Source: a virus (Duplodnaviria > Heunggongvirae > Uroviricota > Caudoviricetes). From it: a stretch of 7,469 bases of DNA. The translations under genes and the position numbers were made by a program. Numbering within the stretch: position 1 is the stretch's first letter; the number at the start of each line of letters is the position of its first letter. Of the stretch, positions 1 through 6,783 are shown in pieces. The stretch covers positions 1-7,469 of the IMG/VR virus record IMGVR_UViG_2534681934_000021; one strand, given 5' to 3'. The notes below the pieces were generated by a model. The model saw nothing but the letters and a program-made list of their open reading frames with translations. It did not search any database and was not told the origin of the DNA.

Positions 1-975
1 TTACACATCATTAGTACCTTCCTTATTTTTTGACTGGGACAAATTTGGGACCGATGGGTTCAGGATCGAGTCTATTTGCCGTGCGTGTTCGGTAAGGTGA
101 TTAGGTGCAAGGTGAGCATATCGACGAACCATTTCGATAGACTCCCAGCCTCCCATTTCCTGTAACACTGACAACGGGACTCCGGCTTGAACCAGCCAAC
201 TTGCCCAGGTGTGTCTCAAGTCGTGAAATCTGAAATCATCAATACCAGCCCGTCTCAGCGCCGCTTTCCAGGCTGTGTTTGCGTCATACCGCATCTTCCT
301 TACTGTTGGCGCTTTCGTTCCGTCTGGTTTGGTACAGCTTTCCTTGTACACAAATACCCAACGGTGATGATTACCGATTTGTTTTTTCAATACGCGACAT
401 GCAGTATCATTCAGCGCAACGCCAATTGCGCGGTTTGATTTACTCTCTTCCGGGTTTATCCATGCCACCCGGCGCTGCATATCTATTTGTTGCCATTCAA
501 GGTTGATGATGTTCGAGCGTCTTAAGCCTGTTGCCAGTGCAAATTCAACAACAGACTTTAATGGCTCCGGACATTCATCAATCAGCCTTTGTGCTTCATG
601 GGGCTCCAGCCAGCGGATCCGTTTATTCTTTGGTTGAGGCACTTTAATAATTGGTGCCTTATCGAGCATTTTCCATTCACGCTCTGCGGCTCTTAGCAGG
701 GCCTTTATAAATGAAAGATGCGTAGCCTTCGTTGCAACGGACGCTGGTTTTGGCGTGTATTCTGGAACAGGTTTCCCTTTTTTTCTGCATGCTTCTGCCC
801 TGAGTTTCCAGTTTTCCTCATGACGCCGGTTCGTCATTTTCTGCATTGCTGAATAAATTTTTGATTCAGTAATGTCTCTTAGTTGCATTCCTGCGAAATG
901 TTGAAGCCAGAATCCGATCTGCTTTCCATTGAGCCTGTTTCTCTGCGCGACGTTCGCGGCGGCGTGTTTGTGCAT
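1..975 (-). CDS. int: Tyrosine site-specific recombinase/integrase, 5'-truncated (core-binding and catalytic domains only); the ORF begins at an ATG in the N leader and its first ~20 codons are N DNA read in the +1 frame
   Basis: C-terminal motifs [18 protein letters not shown] and RRYAHL match the Arg/His-x-x-Arg/Tyr catalytic signature of tyrosine recombinases. There is no arm-binding N-terminal domain. The sequence upstream of ~918 is identical to the lambda N start as I recall it, so the N-terminus is a deletion fusion. The protein is not similar to lambda Int. Confidence 0.72.
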
Positions 976-979
976 CCAT
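866..979 (-). pseudogene. N: Antiterminator N remnant: the first ~20 codons match lambda N ([20 protein letters not shown]), followed by an out-of-frame tail after the deletion junction near 918
   Basis: The minus strand reads AGGAGAATCCAG ATG GAT GCA CAA ACA CGC CGC CGC GAA CGT CGC GCA GAG AAA CAG GCT CAA TGG AAA GCA, then diverges from the recalled lambda N (AANPLLVG...). The Shine-Dalgarno AGGAGA lies at 986-991. Confidence 0.8.
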
Positions 980-1136: not shown

Positions 1137-1167
1137 GCCCTTCTTCAGGGCTTAATTTTTAAGAGCA
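1137..1167 (-). promoter_or_regulatory. nutL: nutL (boxB 1137-1151, boxA 1159-1167)
   Basis: The minus strand reads TGCTCTTAA...GCCCTGAAGAAGGGC, matching the lambda nutL boxB stem-loop exactly as recalled; boxA differs by one base (T for C). Confidence 0.7.
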
Positions 1168-1282: not shown

Positions 1283-2158
1283 TTATATAGATTTATTTTT
1301 TGCAGGGTTGTGTGGCTTGGGAGGTGATCGAGAGATCAGAATTGCGTTGTTTAGTGAGTTGCACCTATTAATTTTAAAATAAATACAATTGCCTTTTTTT
1401 CGATCTTCCCACCAGTCAGGTGCCGGGTCTGGCTCAACATGTAAAGCATCGGCAAGTCCTGATATCAAGCTGTATGACTGAACTCCATCAATGTGCTCTG
1501 ACAGTGATGGGGTAACATTCTGTCTTAGTGGATCAAGAATAAAATCAATACCTTTAATTCTGGCGTGTTTGGCGGCAGGCACAAAGTCTGAGTCCCCAGC
1601 AACAAGGACAATTACATCAACAAGTTTTTCATAAGCTAAAGTCGTGATATCCATCCCTAGCTTGATATCAACTTGTTTTTGTTTGATGTCATAGTAAAAA
1701 TCATCATTTGTCAGTTCATCCCATTTTTTCGTTCCTTTCATCAGAGCATCAAGGGAGAATGTAGTTAGTTGCCATCGCTTATTATCAACAAGATTCCCTA
1801 ATCTTAAGGCTGTTTTTCGAGTTTTTCTTAACTCTTCATGCAGCTCCGTTCTCAGAATATATGATTTTTCGAGTTTGAAATTCTTGCGACCAGGCGTCTT
1901 ATTGCCAGGCTCAGGAAGTGGAAGGCGTGTTTGAATGTCGAGTGGTGGACAGTCATAGAAGTAAATTCTATAAAGCTCAAGCGGTTCCCTACGTTCTTGT
2001 GATTGACGTTTTCCATTAAGATGGGAAAGAACCATTGACCATATTACTTTCATTATGCATTGCGCAGTCAGTTCATGCTCGGCGAAGTGTTTACGATGCG
2101 TAGCATGAACACGCTGCATGAAAAAACCCGCATCAATTAAAATTGCTGCTTTCTTCAT
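1283..2158 (-). CDS. NYN/LabA-like (PIN-fold) nuclease-domain protein, 291 aa; a cargo gene occupying the rexA-rexB position; candidate exclusion/defence gene
   Basis: The N-terminal MKKAAILIDAGFF and C-terminal VLVAGDSDFVPAAKHARIKG motifs are typical of NYN/LabA domains, along with an internal acidic motif (VDIKLGMDI). The start ATG is at 2158. The gene lies between the cI stop (2286) and the point where lambda-like sequence resumes (~1400). The last ~38 codons read through lambda-like DNA. Confidence 0.7.
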   Translation of the reverse strand: MKKAAILIDAGFFMQRVHATHRKHFAEHELTAQCIMKVIWSMVLSHLNGKRQSQERREPLELYRIYFYDCPPLDIQTRLPLPEPGNKTPGRKNFKLEKSYILRTELHEELRKTRKTALRLGNLVDNKRWQLTTFSLDALMKGTKKWDELTNDDFYYDIKQKQVDIKLGMDITTLAYEKLVDVIVLVAGDSDFVPAAKHARIKGIDFILDPLRQNVTPSLSEHIDGVQSYSLISGLADALHVEPDPAPDWWEDRKKGNCIYFKINRCNSLNNAILISRSPPKPHNPAKNKSI

Positions 2159-2167
2159 AAGAGTCCC

Positions 2168-2227
2168 AAAAAAATAGCCCAGAGCCGTTATGCAGATATT
2201 AACAATTGTCTGCGAACGGGGCTGGGC
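2168..2227 (-). terminator. Candidate intrinsic terminator/attenuator hairpin followed by U7, immediately upstream of the NYN start codon
   Basis: On the minus-strand RNA: GCCCAG-CC-CCGUU...(inner stem GCAGA/UCUGC)...AACGG-CU-CUGGGC, then UAUUUUUUU (plus 2168-2174 is A7). The outer stem is 11 bp with a 2x2 internal loop. Confidence 0.35.
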
Positions 2228-2238
2228 TTGGTTTAATT

Positions 2239-2267
2239 AATCTATGCCAAGTTGACTGTGCCGTCAA
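2239..2267 (-). promoter_or_regulatory. Candidate sigma70 promoter between cI and the NYN gene, overlapping a perfect palindrome TTGAC-N6-GTCAA
   Basis: -35 TTGACG (complement of 2262-2267), 17-bp spacer, -10 TAGATT (complement of 2239-2244). The palindrome ttgactgtgccgtcaa is at 2252-2267. Confidence 0.25.
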
Positions 2268-2285
2268 CATAAAACTTACTTCCTA

Positions 2286-2998
<713 letters not shown>

Positions 2999-4664: not shown

Positions 4665-4972
4665 AAAACATCGCCGCACAGATGGTTAACTTTGACCGTG
4701 AGCAGATGCGTCGGATCGCCAACATCGATAACCAGGACATGACGATATCGGTCTGGGTCTTTCCTGATACTGATATTTCAGATGTATCGCGTGAGTTAAT
4801 TGCGGCAATTAAACAGGGGTATCTAACAGTAAAAGCCGCCGGGGTATGGGCGGGGGGCATTGAAACACCTTCGGTGGAAACTCCATCGGAAGGCTCTAAA
4901 TTTTTTGGTTTTGATATGGATAACGAATTCATCAGTGGTTTTGATGTAGGGGCATGGGGAGTATTACTCTGA
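4661..4972 (+). pseudogene. P: P' remnant: the first ~21 codons of replication protein P fused in frame to the C-terminal ~80 codons of an unidentified tail/baseplate-module gene (deletion junction near 4725)
   Basis: MKNIAAQMVNFDREQMRRIAN matches the lambda P N-terminus, then diverges (IDNQDMTISVWVFPDTD...). The ATG overlaps the O stop, and the ORF's own stop overlaps the downstream stf start (TGATG at 4970-4974). Confidence 0.7.
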
Positions 4973-5766
4973 TGGCGAAAAATGACTTTAAAGCGTTTGC
5001 AACTGATCGAAATGCCAATGTTATGTCGCAGGAGGAATGGGAAGCGTTGCCTGCGCTTATATCCGGATTTACAGCAGGGAAAGCATCCAGTGCGCAAGTC
5101 AATAAGGTTATTCGGCAGGCCAGCTTTATTGCTGCAGCTCTGGCCCAGTTTGTAAGTGATAAAACGCAACGGGATGTGCTTGATAATGGTGATCTGCCCG
5201 GTTTTGTTGAATTGCTGGGATCGGGGTTTGCTGTTGAATACCTGAGCCGCAAGAATCCGTTTGGCGATATCAAATCGGACGGCACGGTGAAAACGGCTCT
5301 TCAAAACCTTGGTTTGGGAGAAGGTGCTCCAGCTATTGGCGTTCCGTTCTTCTGGCCGTCCGCTGCAATGCCAAATACTGTAATCGACAGCTGGTCCTGT
5401 ATGGTGTTTTTGAAGTTCAACGGCGCGAAATTCTCTGCCACTGATTATCCTGTGCTGGCGAAAGTGTTTCCTTCGCTGGTATTACCTGAAGCCCGCGGTG
5501 ATTTCATTCGTATCTGGGATGACGGGCGAGGTGCAGACGGTGGTCGCGAATTATTAAGCTGGCAGGCAGCTACAAACTTTTCTCAGTTTGCCGGGAATAT
5601 AGGCGAAGGTGCGGGACACGCAATTAACTTTCATGATGGCATCGCCGGAAATCAGCCAGGATTTTCACGATTTAATTTCACCAGTAACTCTGTGGGTGAT
5701 GGTGTGAATTTTGTTGCAGTCAGACCGCGAAATATTGCATTTAACTTTCTGGTGAGGGCTAAATAA
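4954..5766 (+). CDS. stf: Short side tail fibre protein with a receptor-binding-type C-terminus; the likely true start is ATG 4972 (MAKNDF...)
   Basis: C-terminal motifs [12 protein letters not shown]...[20 protein letters not shown]...[19 protein letters not shown]...[11 protein letters not shown] resemble the lambda Stf and P2 H / Mu S C-termini (GAPIPWP...NIAFNYIVRLA). It is followed directly by tfa. Confidence 0.75.
5297..5322. other. Candidate DNA-invertase (Pin/Gin/Cin/Hin family) crossover site inside stf
   Basis: The 26-bp sequence CTCTTCAAAACC-TT-GGTTTGGGAGAA has imperfect 12-bp inverted half-sites around a 2-bp core. It fits the AAACC-NN-GGTTT pattern of hix/gix/cix/pix sites and lies at the boundary between the constant and variable parts of the fibre. 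Confidence 0.5.
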
Positions 5767-6359
5767 TGAAACCTGTTTTTGATGAAAATGGGCTGGCTAC
5801 AGTGCCGGGCGATATGCGTTGTTTTTATTATGATGCTGAAACATCTGAGTATACGGGCTGGTCTGATGAATATATTAATACTGGCGTAAGTATGCCCGCC
5901 TGTTCCACTGGTATTGACCCTGGCGAAAACATTCCGGGAAGAGTGGCAGTATTTACAGGTAAGGGATGGAGCCATGAAGAAGACCATCGCAATGAGACTG
6001 TTTACTCAATCGAAAATGGCGCAGCTGTTACAGTGGATTATATCGGTGCCATCAAAGACGGTTATGTCACGATTTCACCGTTAACGCCATACGATAAATG
6101 GGATGGTGAGAAATGGGTGACAGACACTGAGGCACAACACAGTGCCGCAGTAGACGCGGCAGAAGCACAGCGCCAATCACTGATTGATGCAGCAATGGCT
6201 TCCATTAGTCTGATTCAGCTGAAGTTACAGGCCGGACGGAAACTGACTCAGGCAGAAACAACCCGACTTAACGCCGTGCTGGATTACATTGACGCGGTGA
6301 CGGCAACAGATACCAGCACCGCGCCGGATGTCATCTGGCCTGAACTGCCGGAGGCGTAG
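5766..6359 (+). CDS. tfa: Tail fibre assembly protein (chaperone), 197 aa
   Basis: The ATG overlaps the stf stop (TAATG). The C-terminus ...LNAVLDYIDAVTATDTSTAPDVIWPELPEA is typical of the lambda Tfa / Mu U family (VDTSTAPDIEWP). Confidence 0.8.
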   Translation: MKPVFDENGLATVPGDMRCFYYDAETSEYTGWSDEYINTGVSMPACSTGIDPGENIPGRVAVFTGKGWSHEEDHRNETVYSIENGAAVTVDYIGAIKDGYVTISPLTPYDKWDGEKWVTDTEAQHSAAVDAAEAQRQSLIDAAMASISLIQLKLQAGRKLTQAETTRLNAVLDYIDAVTATDTSTAPDVIWPELPEA

Positions 6360-6783
6360 GCCATTCAATATCTGGCGCACCGGAAGTATCGACCAGCTCC
6401 AGTGCGTCCAGATAATCCAGCCACAAATTATATTGCGTCAGTTCGTCACCTTTCAGACGACCAATAGCCGCTTTACCGGGCCATTGCTTACTGTTCATGT
6501 ATTCGTTGGCCTGGTTAATTAGTAGCTGTCTTTCTGATTCAGTAATTTCAATAAGCTCTTCATGCGTGGGTGGAGGAATATCTGCCCACGCAGGCAGCCC
6601 ATCATCTCCGGCAATACGGATTTTTCCTTGTGGCGGTTCAGCCATAAACTCACTGATAATATTTTGATTTACTTCCTTAGCGTCTGATAAATCCCATCCC
6701 TCTGATTTATATTTATCAATCATATCCACAGGGAAAAAAGCATTATGCCTTGCGCTATAAACATATTCGTCCATATAAATCAC
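6331..6783 (-). CDS. tfa: Second tail fibre assembly protein in inverted orientation (U'-like), orphaned from its fibre gene; the likely start is ATG at 6774
   Basis: The C-terminus ...NLWLDYLDALELVDTSGAPDIEWPTPPAVQAR is Tfa-family. It converges on the plus-strand tfa with a ~29-bp 3' overlap, the classic invertible-segment arrangement. Confidence 0.75.
   Translation of the reverse strand: MIYMDEYVYSARHNAFFPVDMIDKYKSEGWDLSDAKEVNQNIISEFMAEPPQGKIRIAGDDGLPAWADIPPPTHEELIEITESERQLLINQANEYMNSKQWPGKAAIGRLKGDELTQYNLWLDYLDALELVDTSGAPDIEWPTPPAVQAR

Follow-up and report, generated by a model that had tools for sequence, protein, structure and literature searches.

The 7,469-bp stretch of viral DNA analyzed here in full (the window; IMG/VR record IMGVR_UViG_2534681934_000021) lies, by megablast, in the defective thrW-proA prophage (CP-933H/Sp1 type) of Escherichia coli O157:H7. 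It carries a gene for an NYN-domain protein in the position that phage lambda gives to rexA and rexB. An earlier note on this DNA had presented the gene as a candidate single-gene system. That is probably wrong: the gene moves together with a conserved leader RNA and with a promoter that contains a dyad. The three-part layout of promoter, leader hairpin, and NYN gene recurs in temperate phages, plasmids, genomic islands, and chromosomes across phyla, and the Gram-positive version of the hairpin is TEG147, a small RNA (sRNA) of Staphylococcus aureus. The identity of the gene is not new, as RefSeq phage records already annotate the NYN domain; the conserved module of promoter or operator, leader sRNA, and NYN gene appears to be new, as does its link to TEG147.

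The NYN Gene in the rexAB Slot

Homology to lambda in the window covers positions 919–1391 and resumes from 2279 on, and the interval between is unrelated to lambda, an abrupt switch at the flanks that the earlier note had described correctly. In the functional phage ev099 (NC_049953), homology to lambda extends to the rexB stop codon and resumes 8 nt past the cI stop; there a 985-bp cassette stands in for lambda 35827–37218, which comprises rexB, rexA, and the cI–rexA spacer, and relies on lambda's own t_imm-type terminator. The cassette sits exactly in the lambda rexAB slot, between cI and t_imm, on the cI strand. The placement of an uninterrupted 291-amino-acid (aa) open reading frame (ORF) on that strand, between the cI stop codon (TGA, 2288–2286) and the OL/pL region, was thus accurate, and so was the statement that the ORF does not resemble rexA or rexB, BLASTP having found no similarity to RexA or RexB (best E 4.7). 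The coordinates given in the note, 1283–2158, are right for the ORF and leave outside them the promoter and leader hairpin of the cassette (2159–2278; Table 1).

The NYN gene shares with rexA-rexB its slot and its strand, and lies downstream of pRM, so that read-through transcription is possible in a lysogen besides transcription from its own promoter. It differs from them in sequence, in encoding one soluble protein of nuclease fold in place of the Rex sensor and membrane protein, and in being separated from cI by a promoter of its own and a terminator-like leader.

The cassette is 98–100% identical among the lambda-immunity phage ev099, the heteroimmune phage 2B8, phages E212 and EC.P3, and 48 Stx2a-converting phages, in the last of which window positions 1389–2304 are matched at 100% identity. 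The NYN gene lies directly downstream of cI in ev099 and 2B8 and, as a 74%-identical homologue, directly downstream of the LexA-type repressor gene that takes this place in the P22-like Proteus phage Brookers; a DUF3024 ORF separates cI from the cassette in the Stx2a phages. The enteric form of the hairpin is found together with an NYN gene on 55 IMG/VR contigs, 5 of which were left out of the count of upstream genes because their upstream sequence is too short, and a cI-like gene lies directly upstream in 30 of the 50 assessable contigs. These placements bear out the expectation that the gene would recur next to cI-type repressors in other phages. The Stx2a phages also carry a second, internally deleted NYN copy beside IS1203. 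In one of them, EH0505 (L005 886–1680 and 3913–6027), the immunity region is duplicated and interrupted by IS1203, an intact cI–DUF3024–NYN–N arrangement being accompanied by a truncated cI 3′ end and a deleted NYN remnant that keeps the hairpin.

Both NYN/LabA-type motifs named in the earlier note, ILIDAGF and VLVAGDSDFVPAAKHARIKG, are present in the ORF, and profile and structure searches agree with the assignment. The Pfam NYN profile (PF01936) matches at 36.7 bits, above its gathering cut-off of 24.2 (E 7.2e-9); the match is partial, aligning aa 158–205 with profile positions 72–119 of 145, the C-terminal half of the domain. The uncharacterized phage protein family PHROG 5783 aligns with aa 1–257 over profile positions 1–244 of 246 (E 4e-119). 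An AlphaFold model made from an alignment of 53 homologues is confident (pLDDT 87.8), and the predicted fold is PIN-like alpha/beta, with solved NYN domains as its closest relatives in fold comparison. Six aspartates (D9, D69, D164, D170, D189, and D191) are invariant across the 53 homologues, and all are present in the window ORF. By profile and predicted structure, the window protein has an NYN/PIN fold with its conserved acidic residues in place. A sequence search of the Protein Data Bank (PDB) with the family profile gave no matches, and PADLOC-DB 2.0 gave no full-length match to a defense profile, only partial ones to HEC-09 (E 2e-4, aa 155–200) and to a LabA-like NYN profile (E 1.5e-3). 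NCBIfam TIGR00288 was rejected, its score lying far under its cut-off.

The core fold and acidic active-site residues are shared with LabA-like NYN proteins (NYN.COG1432; VPA0982, PDB 2qip) and with the MARF1 NYN domain (PDB 5yaa). The phage protein differs in its size, greater by about 100 residues, in its insertions and PxWW segment at the C terminus, and in having no OST-HTH/LOTUS domain. HEC-09, a PADLOC candidate in which the NYN protein is embedded in Hma systems, is likewise an NYN-domain defense candidate with MARF1-like aspartates; unlike the window protein it has an N-terminal HTH-like domain, and the profile match between the two is weak and partial. We infer that the window protein is a metal-dependent RNase. 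RNase activity for the NYN fold is supported by the CRISPR-associated NYN protein of Bacteroides fragilis, which cleaves single-stranded RNA in vitro in a Mn2+-dependent manner, although that enzyme is encoded in a type III CRISPR locus, where it acts in crRNA trimming. NYN.COG1432 proteins were otherwise functionally unstudied as of 2017, their gene context linking them to tRNA and rRNA processing (PMC5499597), and literature searches for NYN together with prophage, rexA, cI, RNA antitoxin, or anti-phage terms returned no paper on this NYN family.

The Promoter and Leader RNA

Transcription from the sigma70-like promoter of the cassette is predicted to start near position 2232, 3–4 nt ahead of the hairpin, and the promoter scan of the window found no promoter-like site between the hairpin and the ATG. 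Promoters matching in at least 10 of 12 positions stand just upstream of the hairpin in 26% of 89 homologue loci, compared with 2% of shuffles. The −35 hexamer of the window promoter is covered by a perfect dyad, and a TTGAC-anchored dyad is present in 19 of the 26 distinct upstream regions of enteric copies, versus 15% of controls, with arms that covary. This pattern suggests an operator bound by a dimer, possibly of the NYN protein itself. In other phage contexts, too, the −35 hexamer anchors dyads, whose arms differ in sequence (TTGACGG/CCGTCA and TTGACA/TGTCAA).

The leader, of about 60 nt, is nearly all one long hairpin; it resembles an intrinsic terminator and ends 10 nt ahead of the NYN ATG. 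Among the 15 copies of the gammaproteobacterial variant, including that of the window, 95.3% of cells pair, versus 28–45% in slid controls, and compensatory changes are seen at 12 of the 17 pairs; the hairpin recurs in the Brookers cassette, where it carries a compensatory change. A hairpin followed by a U-run was found, mostly 1–40 nt before the start codon, in all of the contexts first inspected (E. albertii, Pseudomonas syringae, P. aeruginosa, Proteus, Moraxella phage Mcat4, Burkholderia phiE202, and Streptococcus phage Javan85), and at the same kind of distance in nearly all of 80 species-level loci from many phyla. In the canonical, commoner variant, two covarying helices surround an internal loop (5′ AGUAMG, 3′ GA) that is conserved, as is an apical AU. 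A covariance model of this variant (R1) gave one significant match per locus in 46 of the 80 loci over 726 kb, each time immediately before the NYN ORF, with E values down to 1e-15; it misses the enteric hairpin (E up to 1). The RNA variant tracks the protein clade, the enteric three-helix hairpin being paired with proteins that have the extra C-terminal PxWW segment.

Near-identical enteric hairpins that lack an NYN gene occur on five IMG/VR contigs (L231, L244, L257, L275, and L286), where they have no upstream promoter and follow the end of an ORF; next come holin/endolysin genes, a tRNA gene, or an ORF resembling a protein kinase. Such copies are either the remains of cassettes since lost or terminators put to use at other sites. 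A search of IMG/VR with a loose DNA pattern of the canonical hairpin was set aside because most of its matches were due to chance: of 120, 107 were not followed by an NYN gene, another 5 stood at the edge of their contig, and R1 kept only 11 of the 100 that were run through it. On one viral contig, L135, a canonical TEG147-like hairpin (9218–9276; R1, 51 bits) lies about 250 nt before a small ORF with a RelA_SpoT domain (9531–10178; Pfam E 1.7e-8), in place of an NYN gene, the single case of the hairpin beside another toxin-type enzyme.

The connection to TEG147 comes from Gram-positive copies. The leader of the Javan85 NYN gene matches the Rfam family TEG147 (RF03535) at 52.6 bits (gathering threshold 56.1), and in S. 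aureus the TEG147 model scores 86.6 bits at a site 19 nt upstream of a gene for a 229-aa NYN homologue, beside the ssl genes. Teg147 (srn_0960) is catalogued as an independent, bona fide S. aureus sRNA of 60 nt (PMC5826253), is expressed from a genomic island (PMC3053349), and has a strong 7x6 sarcin-ricin-type loop (PMC13085918). Its size fits termination at the hairpin. The literature searched mentions TEG147 only as an sRNA of unknown function, and no paper there ties it to an NYN gene.

For the enteric hairpin the relationship is more distant. It has an extra helix where TEG147 has the sarcin-ricin loop, and the Rfam scan of the window returned nothing at 2168–2228 with an E limit as loose as 1. 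Model R2, from which enteric sequences were left out, has 2171–2228, on the minus strand, as its top match in the window, weakly (13.8 bits, E 0.15), and its scores are graded, from 27.8 in Proteus through 17–20 in Pseudomonas to 16 in E. albertii. The window hairpin and TEG147 share the same position in the same order of promoter, hairpin, U-run, and ORF, and on these grounds they are probably homologous.

The O157:H7 Copy and Its Prophage

Compared with ev099, the window has lost, by a 156-bp deletion, the 29 last codons of the gene, its stop codon, and the lambda t_imm-type terminator. The missing codons encode a basic tail (11 K/R in 29 aa) of the full-length ev099 protein of 285 aa; residues 257–291 of the window ORF are read-through into lambda-like DNA that ends just short of OL3. 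The core, invariant residues, promoter, and leader are untouched by the deletion and identical to those of functional phages, residues 1–256 being the same in the ev099, 2B8, and Stx2a-phage proteins. The conserved core of the family extends to a WW motif (aa 249–250), and the C-terminal tail is its least conserved part.

Cassette DNA is present in 275 of 5,426 complete E. coli genomes, and at least 80% of the cassette in only 75. In about 200 mainstream O157:H7 genomes the match begins only near window position 1805; in the one inspected, strain 155 (L106 1191–2500), IS1203 abuts window position 1391, positions 1392–1805 are gone, and 118 codons are left. The left end of IS1203 in this strain falls at the same coordinate (1391) as the left edge of the deletion in the window, and the shared edge suggests that IS-mediated adjacent deletion or imprecise IS excision made both states. 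The earlier note had described the gene as apparently intact while its neighbors decayed and had read this as compatible with selection for its retention. The deletion contradicts the description, and the argument from retention fails because the 3′ end is deleted here and the gene is truncated by IS1203 in some 200 related genomes.

The chances are close to even that the O157 copy is a dead remnant, a pseudogene drifting with its defective prophage whatever the family does elsewhere, and this estimate stands independently of any mechanism proposed for the family. Replacement of the basic tail, loss of the terminator, and substitution of IS1203 for part of the gene in related genomes speak for it, as do the wrecked N, int, O, and P genes around it and the fact that, of the matches listed for complete E. 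coli genomes, only the one in O157:H7 strain DEC4E covers the whole window in a single piece. Against it stand the core, intact as far as the WW motif, the invariant residues, promoter, and leader, all the same as in functional phages, and the loss of only the least conserved portion of the family. PGAP annotation of DEC4E splits the ORF into a 123-aa “NYN domain-containing protein” and a partial pseudogene (L001 7283–7654 and 7805–8158, equivalent to window 1283–1654 and 1805–2158). We rejected a real break at this point, as the DNA is identical and uninterrupted; the split is an annotation artifact that probably arises because the protein evidence derives from the IS-truncated allele.

DEC4E matches the window end to end, and the differences are three 1-nt homopolymer indels only, at 2922 (in cI), 3281, and 4222 (in O), the window being one base short at each. 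The order of genes in the window is int′, N′, nutL, pL/OL, the NYN ORF, cI, cro, cII, O′, P′, tail-fiber genes, and IS1203. The earlier note had regarded cI, O, P, N, and int as all decayed. N, int, O, and P are indeed wrecked; the cI frameshift consists of a single T absent from a homopolymer, and since cI is intact in DEC4E it may reflect a sequencing or assembly error, not biology. The remnant of N is joined in frame to sequence overlapping a 5′-truncated integrase gene, and therefore all DNA between N and int has been deleted. After the P remnant, positions 4954–6783 hold the C-terminal ORF of a tail fiber and two convergent tail-fiber-assembly ORFs, and in DEC4E a truncated recombinase gene lies beyond the tail-fiber ORFs, past two more IS1203 copies; together these look like a wrecked invertible tail-fiber segment. 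At the right window end, an ALIL pseudoknot (RF01497, 7173–7289, 121.5 bits) marks the programmed-frameshift site of IS1203, an IS3-family element.

Table 1. Coordinates of the NYN cassette and adjoining features in the window
Feature	Position	Strand	Basis or remarks
N remnant, first 20 codons of lambda-type N	919–979		
nutL boxB	1137–1151		
OL1–OL3 and pL, lambda-like	1205–1272	−	Sequence reading, promoter scan, lambda comparison
NYN-domain ORF, 291 aa	1283–2158	−	Residues 1–256 native (1391–2158); 257–291 read-through tail (1283–1390)
Junction of 156-bp deletion relative to ev099	1389–1391		Missing DNA is ev099 stretch L002 5394–5549
Remaining NYN cassette	1389–2278	−	985 bp when whole in ev099
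Leader hairpin, three stacked helices (7, 5, and 5 bp; 2228–2176), then A and U7 (2175–2168)	2168–2228	−	Fold prediction
Sigma70-like promoter, TTGACG-17-TAGATT	2239–2267	−	Promoter scan; also in ev099
Perfect dyad over −35 hexamer, GTTGAC-N6-GTCAAC	2251–2268	−	Sequence reading; candidate operator
Lambda-type cI	2286–2998	−	Split by 1-nt homopolymer deletion at 2922

Possible Roles of the Module

Prophage-encoded exclusion has its classic site in the rexAB slot, and a portable occupant of that slot in heteroimmune lambdoid and Stx2a phages is for that reason an obvious candidate for an exclusion or abortive-infection system. Such a role, also proposed in the earlier note, is plausible from genomic context. 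Outside the lambdoid phages, the NYN gene lies between an XRE-family regulator gene and int in Javan85, adjoins int in a P. syringae prophage and in phiE202, and, in an E. albertii prophage, occupies the strand opposite the flanking lytic genes, with Q on one side and the lysis genes on the other. It is found beside higBA on a P. aeruginosa element (a plasmid or integrative and conjugative element [ICE]), on the genomic island nuSa-alpha of S. aureus, and, in many Proteus genomes, at a constant place in the chromosome beside glmS. The moron-type placements, the plasmid/ICE and island copies, and the adjacency to cI favor an accessory, defense-like role expressed in the lysogen. The Proteus copy (L022–L025 and L040), a 47%-identical NYN gene with its hairpin, is a solitary insert between glmS and an ABC transporter gene; the glmS flank is the classic neighborhood of Tn7 attachment.

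Our leading, tentative reading, to which we give somewhat less than an even chance, is that the module is a lysogen-expressed RNase restrained by its leader RNA, in the manner of type III toxin–antitoxin (TA) and abortive-infection systems. In a lysogen, the module's own promoter and read-through from pRM would yield mostly short, terminated leader RNA, and NYN mRNA would arise only from rare read-through past the leader terminator, which would keep the RNase scarce. The leader would also be the RNA partner of the protein: it would inhibit the protein or act as a decoy, as the RNAs of type III TA systems do, or else serve as an autoregulatory substrate. The dyad would permit repression of the promoter. 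An infecting phage that shuts off host transcription or destroys the labile leader would then free the metal-dependent RNase, which would cut RNA and abort the infection, giving a Rex-like exclusion phenotype.

For the type III families we draw on general knowledge and on published abstracts. With ToxIN, CptIN, and TenpIN, and with AvcID and AbiF, which have an upstream noncoding RNA, the module shares one upstream promoter, a short structured RNA, an intrinsic terminator between that RNA and the ORF, a promoter-less nuclease gene, and residence on mobile elements. The analogy is incomplete, because two defining features fail: TRF found no tandem direct repeats of the toxI type in 1200–2400, the leader being a single hairpin, and the window protein has an NYN/PIN fold in place of the ToxN/AbiQ endoribonuclease fold.

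These two departures count against a leader-restrained defense RNase, and other observations do so as well. HEC-09, the only NYN defense candidate to have been tested with phages, protected against none of those tried, and the window protein matches its profile weakly (E 2e-4). No guilt by association in defense islands was found for distant homologues in the 80 species-level loci; the immediate neighbors there fall into 118 Pfam families, for the most part housekeeping, and include just 4 integrases and a few defense genes, and the distant homologues are mostly solitary chromosomal genes. The earlier note had asked in effect whether the homologues are housekeeping genes with no phage association: the neighborhoods of the distant ones lean that way, and the cI-adjacent copies show that the phage association is present. 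In addition, 5 of 60 enteric-type hairpins in viral contigs lack an NYN gene and stand at plain-terminator sites, the O157 lineage has damaged its NYN gene repeatedly, and the enteric hairpin has no sarcin-ricin loop, its homology to TEG147 drawing on position and a weak model score.

Some of the same evidence would fit an autoregulated RNase outside defense, acting in RNA processing or turnover or modulating host or prophage transcripts, with the leader as its feedback target and the phage placement opportunistic. The rnc and rne leaders are feedback targets of their own enzymes in this way. Most of the distant homologues are solitary genes amid housekeeping neighbors such as prfB, glnA, argJ, pheS, and ruvB, few defense genes are found among neighbors, the Proteus copy is fixed next to glmS, NYN.COG1432 is linked by gene context to tRNA and rRNA processing (PMC5499597), and HEC-09 gave no defense. 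We nonetheless regard this explanation as rather unlikely: the homologues show no conserved synteny and a patchy distribution, with copies on phages, plasmids, and islands (including nuSa-alpha of S. aureus), the gene is antisense to flanking lytic genes in at least one prophage (the E. albertii type), and heteroimmune lambdoid phages have exchanged an identical cassette at a position known to house exclusion genes. Mobility of this kind would also suit a selfish, TA-type addiction element that stabilizes whatever carries it, be it a mobile element or a chromosomal site, and does nothing against phages. The module is self-contained and occurs in variable contexts (on plasmids beside higBA, on islands, and in prophages), and its promoter, dyad, short abundant RNA, and rarely expressed nuclease resemble autoregulated TA loci. 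Addiction shares the evidence gaps of the leader-restrained defense RNase, however; its loss through IS insertion in O157 has been tolerated, and most characterized RNA–protein TA modules (ToxIN, AvcID, and AbiF), as far as their abstracts describe them, defend against phage. We consider it improbable, and rank a defense-like RNase restrained by its leader first, an autoregulated RNase outside defense second, and a pure addiction module third.

A different proposal concerns the hairpin itself, which might be a portable intrinsic terminator that closes the cI transcript and has no specific tie to the NYN protein. Its terminator geometry, and the enteric copies at gene ends or before lysis genes that have neither NYN gene nor promoter, would be accounted for in this way. 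The hairpin is, however, conserved with NYN genes across phyla and in unrelated contexts, its internal loop (AGUA/GA) and apical AU are conserved and are not needed for termination, and a discrete sRNA accumulates in S. aureus. Moreover, the promoter that separates the hairpin from the gene upstream places the hairpin at the beginning of a transcript instead of at its end. There is little likelihood, in our estimate, that it is a terminator and nothing else.

The leader-restrained defense RNase can be carried further, to a speculative proposal that we think unlikely as a whole. TEG147-type hairpins and NYN RNases would form a new and widespread class of RNA–protein TA or abortive-infection systems, from Staphylococcus islands to lambdoid phages, and would serve the latter as an alternative to RexAB. 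The sarcin-ricin-like loop (AGUAMG/GA, like the start of the sarcin-ricin loop of 23S rRNA) would act as a decoy or inhibitor, and the true target would be a similar motif, for example, the ribosomal sarcin-ricin loop.

The link described here gives an orphan S. aureus sRNA and Rfam family, TEG147, a specific protein partner, extends the RNA–protein pairing across phyla and into phages, and joins PHROG 5783/NYN.COG1432 and TEG147 into one testable module. If the RNA is an antitoxin or a feedback substrate, the repertoire of RNA–protein TA systems would gain a PIN-fold member; if it is not, a conserved leader-terminator that would control an RNase is still defined.

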